Source: Candidatus Latescibacterota bacterium
GTDB taxonomy: Bacteria; Latescibacterota; UBA2968; GCA-2709665
NCBI GenBank assembly: GCA_965203805.1
Contig: OZ241917.1
Span: forward strand, 384,001 to 448,000
Reading direction: 5' to 3'
Length of the DNA: 64,000 bases
Shown here: positions 19,505-54,438 of the stretch, piece by piece
Numbering within the stretch: position 1 is the first letter of the stretch
How the letters are laid out: every line of letters begins with the position of its first letter
The notes under the pieces: model-generated
Told to the model about the DNA's origin: nothing
The model's database searches: none
What the model saw: only the letters and a program-made list of their open reading frames with translations
Made by a program: the position numbers and the translations under genes

Positions 19505-19525
19505 CCTGTCTGCCGGCCAGGCAGG
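19505..19525. repeat. 21-bp palindromic CCTG...CAGG element
   Basis: CCTGTCTGCCGGCCAGGCAGG, exact reverse complement of 49727-49747. Confidence 0.8.
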
Positions 19526-46301: not shown

Positions 46302-49112
46302 ATGGATGGAGGCGCACACTTTTATCGTTGTGATCTTCAGGTACATTCCCCCCGAGATACAAATTGGACTGGCCGTGAACGCGTAACAGAGCCGGATCGA
46401 TATGCCTACGCGACTAATCTTGTACATGCTTGCCGCGAACGTGGGCTACAAGCAATTGCTATAACAGATCATCATGACATGTTGTTTCTCAGATTCGTTC
46501 GCTCAGCCGCTGCCGAAGAGAAAGACCAGGAGGGCAACGAGTTGTTGCCAGAGAAACGCTTGGTGGTATTTCCTGGAATGGAGTTGACTCTGGGAGTTCC
46601 TTGCCAGGCATTGGTTATATTTGACGCCAAATTTCCAGACGATTTATTCTCGTTGGCCATGAACGCTCTAGCCATTACACCAAGTGCCGAAAATGACGCG
46701 AAGATAGCCGACGTGCAACGACTAAATGGTATACAGTCGCTAGGTGATTTAAAACAGAAACTCGACGAGCACGATTTCATTCGCGGTCGCTACATCGTAT
46801 TTCCGAATGTCGGTAAGGACGGTCAGTTCTCCCTGATTCGGAAAGGGCTTGCAGGAAAGTACGTCGAAATGCCGTGTGTTGGTGGATACGTAGACGGAAA
46901 AATCGCCGACTTAGGGAAGGGTACGCGAAACATCATTGACGGAAAGGCTAGGGAGTGGGGACATAAGCGGATTGCGTGTTTTCAAACTTCAGACAGTCGT
47001 AGTGAAGATCACACGACGCTCGGAGAATCTAGCACGTGGATCAAGTGGGCCGTCCCCACCGCTGAGGCGCTACGCCAAGCGTGTCTAGGCCAGGAGTCTA
47101 GGATTTCCCAAGAATTGCCCCCAATGCCAGCAGTTGTGATAAAGAGTATCTCGGCGAGTAACAGTTCATTCCTTGGTCCGTTTGACCTAGAACTGAATCC
47201 GCAGTACAACTGTCTAATTGGCGGTCGAGGGACTGGGAAGTCCACGATCCTTGAATACTTACGCTGGGGGTTGTGCGATCAACCGCCATCAGATTTAGAG
47301 GAGAGCGATACGCCGAATTATGAGGCACGGAGGCGGCGTCTAATCGAACACACGCTAAAACCTATGGACGCAACGGTGGATGTGCAGTTTGAGGTTAATG
47401 GCGTACAGCACATCGTCCGACGAACGAGTGAAAACGGTCACCTTCTGATCAAGATCGGCACTGAAGAAATGAAACCTTGCACTGAAGAGGAAGTTCGCAG
47501 GCTACTACCCATACAGGCCTATAGTCAAAAGCAACTGAGTGACGTAAGTGTCAGGGTCGATGAGTTGTCACGTTTTGTCAGAGCCCCGATTCGCGCAGAA
47601 CTTGATAAGATTGAACAGCGTCTAGAGGAGGGCGCCGACAGGGTAAAGGAAATCTACGCGTTGGTGCGACGATATCGTGCGCTTTCCCGAACGATCCAGG
47701 AACGTCAAATTGCTGAAAGTTCGTTGTCGGAGCAAGCAGATGCGCTACGAGCGGGACTATCAGGCCTGTCGGAAGAGGATCGTGCGCTGCTCGATATGGG
47801 TGGTTCATATTCGAATGCGGAACACACCGTCGAGTCTTGGAAGAGTGGTGTTATCCAGTTGGCCGAAGGTGCCGACGCGTTGCGATCGAGGTTAGATGTC
47901 CATTTGGTTGAGCATGAAGCGGTGCCAGCAAGTCCGGAAGGCGACATTCTGAGGGACGCCCACGGGGAATATAGAACGCTGCTCACTGATGCAAAGTTAG
48001 CTCTTGATGGCATCGTCGAGAAGGCACGATCAATTATCGATGCTCCACAATCGGACGGTGAAGGTCCTTGGCGGAAATGGGTTGAGAAATTGGCCGCTTT
48101 TCGTGAGGCATACCAATTGGCTGTTAGTCGATCGACGACTCATCGTGACAAAATGGAGCAACTGACAGAGATCGAGGAACGACTGCGGGCGCATCAACAA
48201 GAGACGTTGCGCTTAGAAAAAGAAAAAAAGGCGATTGCGAGGGTGGAGGAGGACTATAATAACGCGCGCGATGAATGGAAGGAGCTGATTGGCAAGCGCG
48301 ATGATTTACTTGATGTGCAATGTTCGAATCTAACAACGAACTCTGGAGGCACCATTCGTGCCCACGTTAGCCGTTACGCCGATCCCGAGGATTTCGTAAC
48401 GCGACTAAAGCAGGCAGTCAGTGGATCGCGTGTACAAGGTAGCAAAATCGAGCAACTCGGAGCGGCTATCTCAGAAGTAGAATCAGCAAGTGACGCACCC
48501 AAAATCCACCAGGCGATCTTGGCGGACCTTGAGAAACTGGCGGAATTCGATGCAGAGCGAGAGGGAATTGAGAATCGGCCAGATGCCTCAGCTCTGACAC
48601 GTATCGGATTGACTAAATCAAACTTGGACGGGATCTGTAGAGGTCTTGGGCTAGACGATTGGTTGACTCTGTCACTTACGCCAATCACTAGTGAGCCAGT
48701 TTTCGAATATCGGGCGCGCGAGAAGGATTACATTCCGTTCCGAAACGCTTCGGCTGGTCAGCAGGCTACGGCACTACTCACAACGCTACTTAATCAGTCA
48801 GGTCCTCCATTGATTATTGATCAGCCGGAGGAGGATCTGGACAACCCAATTATCCTGGAGATCGTTGAACACGTTTGGGTTGCAAAAAAGAAACGTCAGC
48901 TAATTTTCGCGAGCCACAATGCTAATTTAGTGGTGAATGGTGACGCCGAGCTTGTTGCTTGGTGTGGCCACAGAACGTCTGGCGACCAGTCACGGGGGAC
49001 GGTTGCTGGCGAGGGTGCGATCGATGTAGACGACACCAGAAATGCTATCAAGGAAATAATGGAAGGGGGGGAGGCAGCATTTAACCTCAGAAGGGCCAAA
49101 TATGGGTTCTGA
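46302..49112 (+). CDS. PHP domain + coiled-coil ABC ATPase (TrlF/Ppl-like)
   Basis: DLQVHS, TDHH, GMEL; Walker A GGRGTGKS, SAGQQ, IIDQPEEDLDN, SHN. Confidence 0.85.
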   Translation: MDGGAHFYRCDLQVHSPRDTNWTGRERVTEPDRYAYATNLVHACRERGLQAIAITDHHDMLFLRFVRSAAAEEKDQEGNELLPEKRLVVFPGMELTLGVPCQALVIFDAKFPDDLFSLAMNALAITPSAENDAKIADVQRLNGIQSLGDLKQKLDEHDFIRGRYIVFPNVGKDGQFSLIRKGLAGKYVEMPCVGGYVDGKIADLGKGTRNIIDGKAREWGHKRIACFQTSDSRSEDHTTLGESSTWIKWAVPTAEALRQACLGQESRISQELPPMPAVVIKSISASNSSFLGPFDLELNPQYNCLIGGRGTGKSTILEYLRWGLCDQPPSDLEESDTPNYEARRRRLIEHTLKPMDATVDVQFEVNGVQHIVRRTSENGHLLIKIGTEEMKPCTEEEVRRLLPIQAYSQKQLSDVSVRVDELSRFVRAPIRAELDKIEQRLEEGADRVKEIYALVRRYRALSRTIQERQIAESSLSEQADALRAGLSGLSEEDRALLDMGGSYSNAEHTVESWKSGVIQLAEGADALRSRLDVHLVEHEAVPASPEGDILRDAHGEYRTLLTDAKLALDGIVEKARSIIDAPQSDGEGPWRKWVEKLAAFREAYQLAVSRSTTHRDKMEQLTEIEERLRAHQQETLRLEKEKKAIARVEEDYNNARDEWKELIGKRDDLLDVQCSNLTTNSGGTIRAHVSRYADPEDFVTRLKQAVSGSRVQGSKIEQLGAAISEVESASDAPKIHQAILADLEKLAEFDAEREGIENRPDASALTRIGLTKSNLDGICRGLGLDDWLTLSLTPITSEPVFEYRAREKDYIPFRNASAGQQATALLTTLLNQSGPPLIIDQPEEDLDNPIILEIVEHVWVAKKKRQLIFASHNANLVVNGDAELVAWCGHRTSGDQSRGTVAGEGAIDVDDTRNAIKEIMEGGEAAFNLRRAKYGF

Positions 49113-49499
49113 GTTCGCACCTATGACCCAGCGCGCCCGTGAGTCACTTAGCCTGACTAATTCATGAAACTGAACGGAACAGTGTTTTTGGAAGCAAAAA
49201 GTGATCTATAGAAGGGGAAATAGTCAAATGACGTGTTGGTGACGGGATAATGCGTAATTTTGGGTGGTCTGTCAGCATCGAGGGGTGTCGAGTTCTTTGA
49301 TTTGTGGATGGAAAGGACAGACGGATGCCTTGGTCTTACTTTTGGCGATGAGAAAGGGACGGCGGGGCCTGCGTGAAGCGTCTGCGTTATGGAACTGCCT
49401 TTGCCAAATTGCATAGGATGGTGCCATAGAGGTGTTTCAAGGGAAATGAGGTTGGCAAATGGAGTTTGATTTTGGTTTTGAGTTCGGACACTCTCCCGG

Positions 49500-49520
49500 C
49501 CTGTCTGCCGGACAGGCAGG
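49500..49520. repeat. 21-bp palindromic insert, in frame
   Basis: CCTGTCTGCCGGACAGGCAGG; removal gives LKVAGRV. Confidence 0.85.
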
Positions 49521-49726
49521 CGACTTTGAGGATGCGATTCTGAATGGTATTAAACTGCGCGTGCGTCCATTGGGTGGTCCGGAGTCCTTTTTCGGTAAGG
49601 GTGTGCATCAGGACATAAGCGGCACTATGCAGTAAGAGACGGAAGTGATTGGCTTCGAAGGTGTGGCAGGAGGTACGATCGGAATGGAGGAAGGTTTTGT
49701 GATTCTTGATGAAGTTTTCCATCCTG

Positions 49727-49747
49727 CCTGCCTGGCCGGCAGACAGG
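49727..49747. repeat. 21-bp palindromic insert, in frame
   Basis: CCTGCCTGGCCGGCAGACAGG; removal gives YCARGRMENFIK. Confidence 0.88.
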
Positions 49748-50583
49748 CCGCGCGCACAATAGACGGTTTTGTAGAGGAATGAGGGCTGGCTACTCTTCAG
49801 GTTGGTGACGACAAAGCGTGTATTGGCTTGTCCGGAAGCGGTGATTTCAGCTTTGTAGATGATGCGTCTTGGCAGGGCCCAGGAATCTGCCTGGTAAGCG
49901 AAACTGGTAAATCGCTGCACAGGCTGTCCGGTCTCCCGATACTGTGCCTTTGCCTGCTCGATCAGCGCGTGTCCCCGTTGTGCAAGCCTGGCATTGCCCG
50001 TCTGTCCCAGCACGAAATACACCTCTTGCACGTCGCAGAAGTCGTGGACCTCGGGACAGGAAAAATGGCCGTCGCCACGCAAAAAGAGTCGCACGTGCGG
50101 CCACGCCTCGCGAAGGCGTTTCACCAGTCGCTTGAGAACGGTGACAATCTGTTTGCCGGTAGGACGGGCGCCCGGACGCAAAAGCGTCGTGATCAGTCTT
50201 CCTGTCTGCCCTTCATAGATATGCAAGGGACAGTAACAGCGTTCACCATAATAGCCATTGAACATCGCCAACTGTTGACAGCCGTAAACCTCGTCGTCGG
50301 TGTCATCGATATCCAGAACGACCGCGTTGGGAGGCCGCTTGTAGGACGCGATAAACCCGTCCACAAGGGCCTCGGCAATACGATATAAGTCCCGGCGACG
50401 AATGCCGTTTTCCAAACGACTCATCGTGGGTTGGCTGGCCAACGGCGTCCCTGATATCGGCAACCGACCACAGGCCGCCTTGAACGCGGGGTCAAAGCGC
50501 AGCAAATCGCAATCGTTCGCATCTTCATACGCGCACGCGATCTGAAACACACGCTGGCTGATCAGATCCGACATCGTGTGATC

Positions 50584-50616
50584 CCTGCCTGCGCCAAGTG
50601 CAGCGCGGCAGGCAGG
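50584..50616. repeat. 33-bp palindromic insert, in frame
   Basis: CCTGCCTGCGCCAAGTGCAGCGCGGCAGGCAGG; removal gives RHPSYVDHT. Confidence 0.88.
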
Positions 50617-50716
50617 CACATAACTGGGATGCCGACGGTCCGGTAACGCCTCGACGATCCGAGACAGAATGCCGATCTTGGACTCTACCTCTCGAAGCAA
50701 CATCGACCCGATATCG

Positions 50717-50735
50717 CCTGCCTGCAGCAGGCAGG
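50717..50735. repeat. 19-bp palindromic insert, frameshifting
   Basis: CCTGCCTGCAGCAGGCAGG; removal fuses the two frames into FDGGVLTSDIG. Confidence 0.88.
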
Positions 50736-50976
50736 CTGGTGAGCACACCGCCGTCGAAGACGGCTTCCACCTGCTTGCCAGAAACACTTGCGAACGGAAC
50801 TGTGAGTTGACTATCTTGACCTTTCACGGTAGTTTCCTCCTGTTTCATTGCGTTATGGTTATTCGCCTAACCATAATATAATACAATGACTTGGGTAAGG
50901 AAACTACCTTTTTTGTGAATAATTGGGGTCAGACTGACGATACCTATCCATATTCAAAATAGCCGGAGAAAAAAAG

Positions 50977-53900
50977 ATGCATTCCACAGAATCTTTGCAA
51001 TCGACAGTCAAACCTGGTGTAACCGTCGATGGCCCTTTTGTTCCCGAACCTATTGAAGTACTGGCAGTCGTTCCCTTTGGAACATCCTTGAAAGTGATCG
51101 GTAAGGGAACCAAGACTGGCTTGACCCACGATCCTGTTTTGAGTCGAGAGCAGCTATCCAAACTGAACATCTCTGGCGAGAACGAGCCTCTTGACGGGAA
51201 TGCAGCGTTATTCAGGATCGGCATTGAGGCCCATCGGCTTGGTTTGGCCTATGAATATGATCCTTTTTTTTCGCTTTCCATTGCAAGGATAGATCCACTG
51301 CCGCATCAGCTTGAAGCCGTATACGATTATTTTCTAAGACTACCCCGCATTCGGTTCTTGCTTGCTGATGATCCCGGAGCAGGTAAGACCATTATGGCCG
51401 GACTGCTAATCAAGGAGCTGAGAGCAAGGGGCTTGGTAAAGCGCGTTCTGATCGTGGCGCCCGCTAACCTGACGTTTCAGTGGCAGCGAGAACTCAGAGA
51501 TAAATTTCGGGAGTCTTTCGATATTATCAACAGTATGGTACTCCGTACGAACTACGGCCAGAATCCCTGGCAAGAGCGAGACCAGGCTATTACGTCCGTT
51601 TCCTGGGTGTCGCGTATCGAAGATGCTCGTGAGAGTCTACAGCGATCCCGATGGGACCTGATTATTGTAGATGAAGCCCACAAGATGAGTGCCTATGCAC
51701 ACGATCGTAAGACGCTCGCATATCAGCTAGGTGAATCCCTTTCGGAGATGACCGATCATTTTCTATTAATGACAGCAACTCCTCATAAAGGTGACCCCGA
51801 AAACTTCTGTTTGTTTCTCTCGCTTTTAGATCGGGATGTGTATGGTAATGTCGAGAGCCTGAACCACGCAATGTCTCAGAACGAGGCCCCTTTCTATCTT
51901 CGACGCACCAAAGAGGCCTTGGTGTCTTTTCCAGATCCAGATACTGGCGTTGTACATAAGCTGTTTACTAACCGCGAAGTGCATACTGCAGCGTTTGATC
52001 TGGATGGTGAGGAACTCGATTTCTATGATGATTTAACACGGTATGTCGAAGATCAGTCTATTCTGGCTTCAGCCGATAATTCTGCAAGGGGTAGAGCCCT
52101 TGGTTTTACAATGGCAATGCTCCAGCGCCGGATGGCGTCGACGATCTATGCGGTTCGCCGAAGTTTAGAGCGTATGCGGGCTCGGCGTGAAAAGATTCTG
52201 GCCGATCCTGAAGGGTATCGACAGGAACAGATCGAACGAAGGTTTCCGGACGATTATGATGACCTGACCGAAGAAGAACAGCATCAGATTCTGACCGATT
52301 TAGAGGAAGTGGTTGCGTCAGTTGATCCGAGTGCGCTTCGGGAAGAGATTACCCATTTGACGCGATTGATCGGTTCAGCAAGGAAGTTGGAGCACCGTGA
52401 GATCGAATCCAAGTTGGCCAATTTGAAAGACCTGTTGAATAAACGTGGCTTTTTGCGTGATCCGAATAAAAAGCTCCTGGTATTTACTGAACATAAGGAT
52501 TCTCTGGACTATCTGGCTGGAGATGGGAAGGACGGGCGACCATTTGGTAAGCTACGCGCGTGGGGGTTGACGATTACTCAGATTCATGGCGGTATGAAGA
52601 TCGGGGATCGAGATACGCGAGGGACCCGCATCTATGCAGAACGGGAATTTCGAGAATCTGCCCAAATACTAGTGGCAACAGAAGCAGCAGGAGAAGGCAT
52701 CAATCTTCAGTTTTGTAATCAGATGGTCAATTACGACATCCCGTGGAATCCTGTACGATTGGAGCAACGCGTTGGGCGTATTCATCGATATGGTCAGCAA
52801 CACGACTGTTTCATTTTTAACTTTGTTGCCAGAAATACCCGGGAAGGTCGCGTTCTTCAGAAGCTGATGGACCGGCTGCGTGAGATTCGGAGTGAGTTGG
52901 GGACAGATCAGGTATTTGATGTGATTGGCGAAGTATTACCTTCCAATTTGCTAGATCGGCTATTTCGAGATATGTATGCCCGAAGAACAGATGAGCACGC
53001 AGTAGCGCACCGCATTGTTCAGGAAGTGGACTTGAATCGGTTTAAATCCATTACCGAGTCCGCTCTTGAAGGTCTAGCCAAGAAGGAACTAAATCTGTCT
53101 GCCGTTCTTGGCAAATCCGCCGAGGCCAAGGAAAGACGACTGGTGCCTGAGGTGATCGAGCAATTTTTCGTGGAAGCAGGTCCAGTAGCTGGTATTCATC
53201 CAAAGGCCACGTCTCACTGCGGCCAAATATATCGCGTAGGAAAAATACCCAGAACGCTACTTCAAAAAGGGCAGGAAATAGAGGGGCGATTTGGAAGGTT
53301 GGGGAGAGATTATGCGCGTATCGGATTTGACAAGGAGTTGCTAAAAGATCACCCCACATTAGAATGGGTAACCCCTGGCCATCCCCTTTTTGAAGTTGTC
53401 CGAGAGGATGTACTTGAACGCGTGCAAGATCATCTAAACCGGGGGGCAGTGTTTTGGGATCTAAACATACAGGCTGCTGGGATTCTGGACGTTTTTGCTG
53501 CATCGATTAAGGATGGTCTTGGTAACACGCTGCATAGACGTATTTTCGTGGTTGAAACAGATCCCGATGGAGAGATGCAACTCCGACAACCTACCTATTT
53601 CTTGGATATCACGCCAAAGCCTGCCGATGAAACTTCGGCACAGGATCCGAATTTCAAACCACCGGATCGGGTGCTGGCTGAGCGGTTTCTGTTTGAAACG
53701 GCATTACAACCCTGGCTAAATGAATCTGCCGAGCAGAGAGAGAAGGAAGTTGGCATAATTGCCCACCATGTAGGCATCAGCTTGAATGCTTTGATAGATC
53801 GGCAGCAAATCCAGCTTGCAGACTATCTTAATCGTCAGATTGACGGCCAAACTGTTACCGGATTGGATGGTTTGATTGCCCAAGCCGAACAGCATCTGGA

Positions 53901-54438
53901 CGATCTCAACAACCGATTGGAGAACAGAAATAAGGAATTGGAAATGGAGCGCCACTGTACCATCGGAGACATTGCACATCTCGGTCGTGCGATAGTAGTT
54001 CCACATCCCGAACGTCAGACTACAAAATTAGCGCCTATGGTACGGGATGAAAAAATCGAGAAAATAGCGGTACATATGGCCAGGAATTACGAAGAAGCGC
54101 GCGGATGTGTGGTCGAAAGTGTTGAAGCTGACAACCGGGGATTTGATTTGATTTCTCGACGCCCACATCCGGAAGATTCCGACACATTTACAGAAGTAAG
54201 ATTTATTGAAGTAAAGGGGAGGGCCGGAGTTGGGGAGATTTTCTTGAGTACGAATGAATACAGAACCGCAGAACGACTCAAAGACGATTATTGGCTCTAT
54301 ACTGTGTTTAACTGCATAACCGAACCTGACTTACATATTTTTAGAGATCCTGGATCCTTGGATTGGAAACCCATCACGAAAATAGAACATTATCGGATCA
54401 ACCCCAACGCAGTGTTTAGAAACCAGAGCCATGTCTGA
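50977..54438 (+). CDS. SNF2-family helicase with C-terminal DUF3883-like nuclease domain
   Basis: LADDPGAGKT, DEAH, TATPH, GEGINLQ, QRVGRIHRYGQ; C-terminal GFDLIS...FIEVKGR. Confidence 0.92.
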   Translation: MHSTESLQSTVKPGVTVDGPFVPEPIEVLAVVPFGTSLKVIGKGTKTGLTHDPVLSREQLSKLNISGENEPLDGNAALFRIGIEAHRLGLAYEYDPFFSLSIARIDPLPHQLEAVYDYFLRLPRIRFLLADDPGAGKTIMAGLLIKELRARGLVKRVLIVAPANLTFQWQRELRDKFRESFDIINSMVLRTNYGQNPWQERDQAITSVSWVSRIEDARESLQRSRWDLIIVDEAHKMSAYAHDRKTLAYQLGESLSEMTDHFLLMTATPHKGDPENFCLFLSLLDRDVYGNVESLNHAMSQNEAPFYLRRTKEALVSFPDPDTGVVHKLFTNREVHTAAFDLDGEELDFYDDLTRYVEDQSILASADNSARGRALGFTMAMLQRRMASTIYAVRRSLERMRARREKILADPEGYRQEQIERRFPDDYDDLTEEEQHQILTDLEEVVASVDPSALREEITHLTRLIGSARKLEHREIESKLANLKDLLNKRGFLRDPNKKLLVFTEHKDSLDYLAGDGKDGRPFGKLRAWGLTITQIHGGMKIGDRDTRGTRIYAEREFRESAQILVATEAAGEGINLQFCNQMVNYDIPWNPVRLEQRVGRIHRYGQQHDCFIFNFVARNTREGRVLQKLMDRLREIRSELGTDQVFDVIGEVLPSNLLDRLFRDMYARRTDEHAVAHRIVQEVDLNRFKSITESALEGLAKKELNLSAVLGKSAEAKERRLVPEVIEQFFVEAGPVAGIHPKATSHCGQIYRVGKIPRTLLQKGQEIEGRFGRLGRDYARIGFDKELLKDHPTLEWVTPGHPLFEVVREDVLERVQDHLNRGAVFWDLNIQAAGILDVFAASIKDGLGNTLHRRIFVVETDPDGEMQLRQPTYFLDITPKPADETSAQDPNFKPPDRVLAERFLFETALQPWLNESAEQREKEVGIIAHHVGISLNALIDRQQIQLADYLNRQIDGQTVTGLDGLIAQAEQHLDDLNNRLENRNKELEMERHCTIGDIAHLGRAIVVPHPERQTTKLAPMVRDEKIEKIAVHMARNYEEARGCVVESVEADNRGFDLISRRPHPEDSDTFTEVRFIEVKGRAGVGEIFLSTNEYRTAERLKDDYWLYTVFNCITEPDLHIFRDPGSLDWKPITKIEHYRINPNAVFRNQSHV

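Follow-up and report, generated by a model that had tools for sequence, protein, structure and literature searches.

Hairpin elements of 19 to 37 bp inserted in an IS1380 transposase gene and dispersed through a Latescibacterota genome: probable non-autonomous mobile DNA

REP (repetitive extragenic palindrome) and REPIN sequences are imperfect palindromes of 20-40 bp with tens to hundreds of copies (PMC2817692, PMC3116915, PMC3733652). Two of these papers place them mostly in extragenic DNA, in clusters and sometimes within open reading frames (ORFs), with G.T pairs in their stems and several families per genome; mobilisation in trans is presumed there, and the target is not duplicated (PMC3116915, PMC3733652). 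Hairpin elements of similar size are described here from a stretch of 64,000 nucleotides, referred to as the window, of a Candidatus Latescibacterota bacterium (assembly GCA_965203805.1, contig OZ241917.1, positions 384,001 to 448,000). Four of them, with the ends CCTG...CAGG, lie inside a single transposase gene of an IS1380-family insertion sequence (IS), and sequences of the same type are found throughout the genome.

The CCTG elements are REP-like in size, shape, copy number and location, with approximately 221 copies of 19-37 bp, of which 161 lie outside ORFs. However the tag differs, i.e., CCTG...CAGG rather than the GTAG or CGTC head of REPs. The unit is a single hairpin, whereas a REPIN is a doublet, and many direct pairs of filled and empty sites are available for it. 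In addition, the terminal stem of the CCTG elements spans phyla and is present in a genome without a match to the Y1 transposase domain, unlike REP and REPIN. The REPtron arrangement, in which inverted cognate repeats flank the gene for a REP-associated tyrosine transposase (RAYT), was not found either: the first of two RAYT genes in the genome, and its orthologues, are flanked by another repeat, GAGGGCA..TGCCCTC. Nor do repeat and transposase consistently occur together, as the first RAYT type is present in six of nine copy-rich relatives and a genome with 680 copies has no PF01797 match. Because the head, the flanking of RAYT and the co-occurrence with RAYT all fail, the CCTG elements are not filed as RAYT-REPs.

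There is also a likeness to the SDR1-8 repeats of heterocyst-forming cyanobacteria, which Elhai et al. (2008, Genome Res 18:1484) reportedly described as repeats of 21-27 nt, some of them hairpins with shared flanking stems, and which are said to insert into one another and into other mobile DNA. To our knowledge no mobiliser of SDRs is known, and we know of no report of a G^C target or of spread across phyla for them. The CCTG elements appear to resemble SDRs, as these are described, in nesting and smallness; they differ in host group, in sequence and in a size of up to 37 bp. The present genome also lacks the HIP1 excess typical of cyanobacteria, with 286 GCGATCGC sites.

Three other classes should also be considered. 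Rickettsia palindromic elements (RPEs) are palindromic repeats that lie in frame within ORFs and add peptide segments (PMC3733652). Most CCTG copies, by comparison, are intergenic, and the intragenic hosts are mostly transposase genes. RPEs are approximately 100-150 bp long and restricted to Rickettsia. The palindrome-associated transposable elements (PATEs), derived from IS200/IS605, and the attC sites of integrons are recombined as folded single strands in which bulged or extrahelical bases mark the strand, with no target duplication and with a short target motif. They require two end hairpins or a site of 57-141 bp, together with a known Y1 transposase or integrase; the whole CCTG element is one hairpin of 19-37 bases to which no such enzyme is linked. 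Miniature inverted-repeat transposable elements (MITEs) have terminal inverted repeats and a target-site duplication, typically measure 50-500 bp and have ends derived from an IS, whereas the CCTG elements measure 19-37 bp, have a flank gap of 0 at nearly all empty sites and have ends that differ from those of IS1380. Neither CCTG nor CAGG appears in the text of PMC3733652, and no publication was found with the 20-mer CCTGCCTGCCGGCAGGCAGG, with GCAGGCAGG as a repetitive extragenic sequence or with a CCTG-tagged family; the supplementary lists of PMC3733652 and PMC6006769 could hold one.

Within the window the pattern CCTGYCTG-N3-20-CAGRCAGG gives six matches at five places (19505, 49500, 49727 with the overlapping 49723, 50584 and 50717), and it gives none in each of 100 dinucleotide-preserving shuffles. 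The features concerned are as follows.

Window 49149-50928, minus strand: inactivated copy of an IS1380-family insertion sequence that hosts the four inserts; ends set by homology to seven other copies.
Window 49387-50848, minus strand: broken transposase frames, i.e., an N-terminal fragment (50525-50848) and the main frame (49387-50787); from the ORF list and the alignment of homologues.
Window 49500-49520, no strand: insert 1, a 21-bp hairpin CCTGTCTG...CAGGCAGG, in frame, adding CLSGRQA; from the alignment of IS copies.
Window 49727-49747, no strand: insert 2, 21 bp, in frame, adding LSAGQAG; from the alignment of IS copies.
Window 50584-50616, no strand: insert 3, a 33-bp two-tier hairpin, in frame, adding PACRAALGAGR; from the alignment of IS copies.
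Window 50717-50735, no strand: insert 4, a 19-bp minimal element that causes a frameshift; from the alignment of IS copies.
Window 19505-19525, no strand: fifth family member in the window, of 21 bp and with a G^C junction; from the pattern match.

On NF033539, the IS1380 family transposase model with a cut-off of 180, the transposase read through from the window copy reaches 335 bits and its intact paralogue 385 bits, which places both in the IS1380 family; on PF13701 the window copy reaches 449 bits. Seven further copies of the IS are found in the genome, which is one contig of 5.87 Mb with 59% G+C. Four of these are near-identical to one another, have 85.6% identity to the window copy and are devoid of all four inserts; the insert-free copies encode an uninterrupted transposase of 455 aa. 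When the eight copies were aligned with MAFFT, every palindrome appeared as an exact indel, so that the empty sites expected by the original prediction are present in intact copies. The lengths of 21, 21, 33 and 19 bp and the ends CCTGYCTG...CAGRCAGG that it had given for the inserts are likewise borne out. It had further held that removal of the inserts restores IS1380 motifs, and the intact copy does encode close versions of these (FDGGVLTSDMG, HPSYVDHP, YCARGRMEN and LKVAGSV). Three inserts are in frame, as predicted, and the 19-bp insert splits the transposase frame into the two ORFs listed. The peptides PACRAALGAGR, LSAGQAG and CLSGRQA are seen in the window protein alone. Neither the intact paralogue nor any of nine external homologues (59-86% identity) has them, and thus the alternative raised with the prediction, that they are ancestral to IS1380 transposases, finds no support.

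The inserts differ in their distribution among the IS copies. Insert 1 is found in the window copy only; the seven other copies are empty, and the nearest two read ...CCCGG^CGAC... at this site. Insert 2 is common to four copies at four loci, one of them just 88% identical to the window copy, and is missing in the four near-identical copies, where the empty site is ...TCCTG^CCGC.... Insert 3 is shared by the window copy and a copy at G000:C1:1368430-1370069 (c1368; G000 is the present genome), with the empty site ...GATC^CACA... in six copies. Insert 4 is shared by the window copy and copy c4186, with the empty site ...TATCG^CTGG... in five. By parsimony on the IS copies insert 2 is probably the oldest, followed by inserts 4, 3 and 1. 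Since insert 2 is present at four loci, the IS still transposed after gaining it.

Copy c1368 lacks the bases that follow insert 3 as far as the last base of insert 4 (aligned window positions 50617-50735). The deletion runs between the repeated CAGGCAGG ends, and thus neighbouring elements appear to cause deletions when these identical ends recombine. A comparable skip of 119 bases is seen in a contig of the public run X1.

Contigs from other public runs carry or lack single inserts. Insert 1 is absent from an X3 contig and present in an X6 contig; X3 and X6 contigs skip exactly the 33 bases of insert 3, and other X6 and X14 contigs carry them; the 19 bases of insert 4 are absent from an X3 contig. 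The inserts are therefore not assembly artefacts, a point on which the original prediction had asked for reads. An RNA-library contig from a public run carries inserts 3 and 4 ungapped, but this does not prove transcription, as DNA can be carried over in such a library.

A genome-wide search with the pattern, also proposed at the outset, gave 216 matches versus one for the reversed control. After matches that contain another match were dropped, the set comprised 221 elements, which represent 142 flank-distinct contexts. The elements fall into discrete hairpin families of 19-21, 27, 30-31, 33 and 36-37 bp. With DNA energy parameters, most elements fold into an 8-bp terminal stem, a bulge of 2-3 nt, a second stem and a small loop, and the 19- and 20-mers represent the terminal stem alone. 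The terminal stem is conserved, with CCTG(C/T)CTG paired to CAGGCAGG; the second stem and loop of the longer forms are variable. At the fifth position of the stem 159 elements have a C-G pair and 62 a T.G pair, and none has T-A. Thus one strand can fold and its complement folds less well, an asymmetry that favours a single folded strand as the form that is acted on. Together with the conserved bulges it suggests that the element acts as a folded single strand.

The 70-base flanks of each element were searched separately against the genome for paralogous sites. A paralogous site was found for 144 of the 221 elements, and for 81 there is at least one paralogue in which the flanks abut (gap of 3 or less). 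In nearly all of these the gap is exactly 0, with a few of -1 or 3. Thus the inserted piece is exactly CCTG...CAGG and the target is not duplicated, as had been noted for the window. The 81 filled and empty pairs reduce to 45 flank-distinct events and these to 34 distinct empty sites, of which 25 have G^C at the insertion point (CG^CC, TG^CG, CG^CG, GG^CG); for the G^C sites only, a crossover or duplication of 2 bp ("GC") would yield the identical sequence. A G is found at position -1 in 58 of 68 half-sites, and in the full set of 221 copies 146 are flanked by G and 141 by C. Four of the five window copies are at G^C, as predicted, and the fifth is at C^C. Elements are also found one within another, inserted at G^C near the bulge of the host element, and some other insertion events occurred in the middle of an unrelated repeat.

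Sixty of the 221 elements are within predicted ORFs and 161 are outside, with ORFs taken from a home-made, crude codon-usage filter (4195 ORFs, 83% of the genome). Of the flank-distinct contexts, 43 are in stop-to-stop ORFs, and many of these precede the real start, in a 5′ extension. Of the intergenic ones 65 lie in tandem, 18 in convergent and 16 in divergent spacers, as would be expected from the length of each spacer class. The orientation of the T.G strand shows no bias relative to the direction of transcription among the 142 contexts. With this lack of bias, and with no preference for convergent spacers, a role at the RNA level (as terminator, or by splicing out) is not indicated.

Counted per 100 kb, flank-distinct events are rarest in unique coding DNA (0.68); unique non-coding DNA has 9.6, repeated (IS) ORFs have 16.2 and repeated non-coding DNA has 37. 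The density in IS ORFs is near that in non-coding DNA; thus IS genes behave as neutral DNA, and targeting of mobile elements need not be assumed. Besides the window transposase, eleven ORFs with internal elements were compared with Pfam. Six are transposases (IS1380-like, IS5/DUF772, IS4/5, two IS630-type and Mu-like), three are ordinary genes (heparinase-like, a membrane-fusion protein and a DnaE frame, the latter with the element upstream of its first domain), and two have no Pfam family.

The elements are especially frequent in G000:C1:3.24-3.47 Mb, with 56 in 250 kb. Here they are embedded in longer mosaic intergenic repeats that include CTCTCCCCCC..GGGGGGAGAG units and a unit of approximately 70 bases with a 31-mer, and two DUF559 genes begin directly after such mosaic repeat units.

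The strict pattern was also counted in 40 relatives, in which the copy number is patchy and ranges from 0 to 265. The genus alone has genomes with 0, 2, 2, 2, 4, 6, 15, 22, 22, 63, 84, 104, 134 and 265 copies, and a looser pattern over 168 genomes of the phylum gives similar counts, up to 279. Identity of one conserved protein, the H+-pyrophosphatase, gives no indication that the genomes rich in copies group together as a clade.

In a scan of one genome per species, elements were found at a minimum of 122 loci and the exact 20-mer CCTGCCTGCCGGCAGGCAGG in at least 67, where fewer than one would be expected by chance (596 billion bases against 4^20, by our own arithmetic). The hosts of the 20-mer among the matches listed are the candidate phyla radiation (CPR/Patescibacteria), Bacteroidota, Omnitrophota, Planctomycetota, Gammaproteobacteria, Bdellovibrionales and Thermodesulfovibrionales; longer matches in some taxa may be due to chance. 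One gammaproteobacterial genome holds 680 copies in all, most of them 19-mers, a Flagellimonas genome holds 8 and a 0.9-Mb CPR genome 3, with 0 in controls. It should be noted that one genome, G044, is the same as relative G015, with identical match coordinates, and is not independent. Many of the gammaproteobacterial 19-mers lie between the arms of another hairpin repeat. In viral contigs, elements are found at no fewer than 130 loci, with the 20-mer present at least 48 times.

Some of these copies are near tRNA genes. In the CPR genome (G043, loci L152-L154) all three 20-mers are within approximately 260 bases of a tRNA gene, and at L154 the order is a 5′ tRNA fragment, the 20-mer and a 79-aa GIY-YIG ORF that abuts tRNA-Lys, an arrangement seen once. 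In the Flagellimonas genome (G041) one copy, at L159, is 80 bases from tRNA-Asn. At L202 of genome G042 (positions 2056-2090), one arm of a 19-mer consists of five CCTG units and the other of two CAGG units, and thus the tetranucleotide ends can slip like a microsatellite.

A second IS1380 transposase, P0034 (477 aa, from another genome), has three extra peptides in frame, TCLPSRARRRQ, LSACDAQAG and CLRATHRQA, at positions other than those of the window copy. DNA that begins with CCTGYCTG and finishes with CAGRCAGG could encode all three. Lengths of 33 and 27 nt suit the first two; the third is, in the alignment, an insert of nine residues (27 nt) for which the listed fits have 31 nt. The presence of 11 member sequences on 7 contigs suggests that this decorated IS is still spreading.

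The reading considered probable is that the inserts are very small (19-37 bp) non-autonomous hairpin elements, similar to REPs and SDRs, that are placed in trans at G^C without duplication of the target. It is in line with the original prediction of a family of very short non-autonomous insertion elements, which the empty sites across the genome now support. The element is a stem loop only, and would be recognised in the form of a folded single strand through its terminal stem. As it encodes nothing, the enzyme must come in trans; both this mobilisation in trans and the single-stranded hairpin intermediate are what we infer from the comparison of sites and structures. A copy is placed precisely in a new site, usually between G and C, and the target is not duplicated; this is shown by the paired sites. 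Selection would remove insertions from ordinary genes, and the survivors are found in non-coding DNA, in other repeats (as nested copies) and in IS genes, where in-frame copies add 7-11 residues and out-of-frame copies break the gene. The ends of the element in addition promote deletions between neighbouring copies.

Several points weigh against this reading. No de novo insertion was observed, and the case for mobility is drawn from comparing copies. Many of the 221 counted copies travel passively in larger repeats, and the gene model is crude. Single-strand transposition would be expected to give a strand bias. The T.G strand is oriented 31 versus 15 relative to provisional replichores, which is a weak hint of strand-specific insertion; the bias is only approximately 2:1 and depends on an uncertain placement of origin and terminus. 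Moreover, no mobiliser was identified among the candidate families tested: none of three such families is present in all copy-rich genomes, RAYT as the cognate mobiliser is rejected on the flank test (other repeats flank the RAYT genes) and on the phyletic pattern, and the 680-copy gammaproteobacterial genome has no Y1 HUH (PF01797) match at E of 0.001 or less.

Two candidates for an enzyme nevertheless have to be weighed, of which a small DUF559 nuclease (Vsr-like, PD-(D/E)XK) that drives insertion, e.g., by a nick at G^C or at the T.G-containing stem, is rather unlikely. It is the candidate family that tracks copy number best among relatives. Of the 14 relatives that have at least 10 copies, 13 have strong matches to DUF559 (PF04480), versus 7 of 27 with fewer, and within the genus such matches are found in 9 of 9 genomes with 15 or more copies versus 0 of 6 with 7 or fewer; the thresholds were set after the data were seen, and the genomes are related and so not independent. 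The lack of any sign of a copy-rich clade in the one protein compared is also in its favour. However seven copy-poor genomes have the gene, and it was not found in relative G024 (117 copies) or in the 680-copy gammaproteobacterial genome. Physical linkage is weak. In the present genome two of the five DUF559 genes are within 700 bases of an element, for which a random point has a chance of 4.5%; elsewhere an element is 300 bases or less from 3 of 22 DUF559 genes (0.43 expected), but 17 of the 22 have none within 1 kb. DUF559 is a domain without known function, and the correlation may simply mark genomes that are rich in mobile DNA. The other candidate, that the elements are strict REPs moved as folded single strands by one of the two genomic RAYT (HUH Y1) transposases, is unlikely, and the HUH or RAYT partner that the original prediction had put forward is not supported for this family in this genome. 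In its favour, both RAYT genes score above the NF047646 cut-off (104 and 91 bits) and each gene or domain has a CCTG element within approximately 20 bases; HUH transposition leaves no target duplication, and the T.G asymmetry and bulges would suit recognition of a single-strand hairpin. The RAYT 1 type is moreover found in copy-rich relatives only, in six of the nine with 60 or more copies, yet it is missing in the other three. Its neighbourhood argues against it. RAYT 1 (L005, G000:C1:4532312-4535533) is a gene of 201 aa between inverted, GTAG-headed repeats GAGGGCA(N3-4)TGCCCTC. This REPtron is conserved in five other genomes (L129-L133), with the same repeat on both sides and no CCTG element in the flanks, so only the copy of the present genome has one nearby; the repeat itself is a second and separate hairpin family of the lineage. 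RAYT 2 (L006, G000:C1:4546926-4550681; also L136 and L137) is a complete RAYT domain in frame inside an ORF of 1252 aa, the N-terminus of which presumably belongs to a DUF1156-type DNA methylase, as judged by eye. The arrangement recurs in relatives G008, G011 (twice) and G016, in open frames of 1200-1441 aa, and is always followed by a GCGGACG..CGTCCGC hairpin.

Three further rivals were weighed. Polymerase template switching, i.e., microhomology-mediated copying into or out of an existing hairpin during replication or repair, would need no enzyme of its own, and one imported copy could seed more in any host. The copy-rich genomes share no candidate gene, no gene family recurs among the 130 or more viral-contig loci (the largest has 7), the G and C that bound the site could serve as 1-base microhomologies, and the hosts are as unlike as CPR bacteria and Bacteroidota. 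However nearly all of the 81 pairs have their boundaries precisely at the stem base, which is tighter than usual for this mechanism, close relatives with the same replication machinery range from 0 to 279 copies, and the conservation of the 8 terminal base pairs while the cores vary is a signature of protein recognition. Template switching is quite unlikely on balance, although it stays a live rival because no candidate gene is common to all copy-rich genomes. Very unlikely is a defence-like inactivation of IS by elements aimed at mobile DNA. The original prediction had offered this beside accumulation in dispensable DNA, and the latter is favoured. Four copies do lie in one IS, 6 of the 11 ORFs scanned are transposases of several IS families, and P0034 is a second IS1380 transposase with three such inserts. 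Against this, the density in IS ORFs (16.2) is near that in unique non-coding DNA (9.6) and below that in repeated non-coding DNA (37), most events are intergenic, and in-frame insert 2 at four loci means that the IS kept moving. Lastly, the inserts could be ancestral IS sequence precisely deleted elsewhere, or assembly artefacts; palindromes are prone to deletion, and a deletion is indeed seen between two elements of one IS copy. This is hardly credible given that the three peptides are absent from nine external homologues and from the intact paralogue, that insert 1 is in one of eight copies and is empty in the nearest relatives, and that the same elements are found at 142 unrelated contexts and in contigs of independent runs.

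Other candidates were tried as mobilisers and not retained. A small GIY-YIG nuclease, the other partner named by the original prediction, is not supported. The GIY-YIG-bearing frames of the present genome are two long ones only (629 and 678 aa, the second of which reads as UvrC), with no small gene found; among the 40 relatives small GIY-YIG genes do not correlate with copy number; none of the Flagellimonas 20-mers is adjacent to such a gene; and of the viral-contig loci listed, at least 130, one has a small GIY-YIG ORF. The Uma2 nuclease likewise shows no correlation with copy number. Nineteen genes of the genome have elements on both sides, and the 17 scanned are ordinary enzymes together with one transposase fragment, one Uma2 and one DUF559. 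An autonomous element was sought among orphan half-sites, of which there are approximately 100 above chance, with nothing clear found, and clustering of the genes beside elements in viral contigs gave the family of seven already mentioned as the largest.

The fifth window copy lies within a composite repeat. The gene concerned encodes a pyridine nucleotide-disulphide oxidoreductase, and the copy falls in the 5′ extension of its stop-to-stop frame, at residue 31; the Pfam domain begins at 157. Approximately 70 bases around it match many sites in related genomes, and the region is a fast-evolving composite repeat. An Rfam scan of the window gave no match.

The host IS sits between two large ORFs on the plus strand, at window positions 46302-49112 and 50977-54438. 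The former (936 aa) has an N-terminal HxH motif and a Walker A motif (GxGKS/T), and the latter is a helicase-like protein of 1153 aa. By eye alone, the two resemble pieces of a defence or restriction-type locus.

A wider interpretation may be put forward tentatively, and is less likely than the preferred reading of the inserts: the CCTG hairpins would be the smallest known mobile DNA (19-37 bp), pan-bacterial, carried between phyla by phages or other vectors and multiplied outside the known transposase classes. Multiplication would then depend either on a structure-specific enzyme family so far unrecognised or on a host-universal route of replication or repair that any folded copy can hijack.

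Previous evidence for the movement of REPs, in the papers considered here, consists of a few excision reads (PMC3116915). If the present interpretation is true, a REP-like element now has many clean filled and empty pairs and a defined target (G^C), a complete transposable unit can be a stem loop of 19 bases, and the same unit is at home in viral contigs and in bacteria as diverse as CPR lineages and sponge symbionts. There are practical consequences as well: extra segments of 7-11 residues in proteins, broken genes, deletions between copies and a mark on IS lineages. Gene callers and repeat maskers will be confused by the elements. Discovery of the mobiliser could reveal a new route to precise, duplication-free insertion of short DNA.

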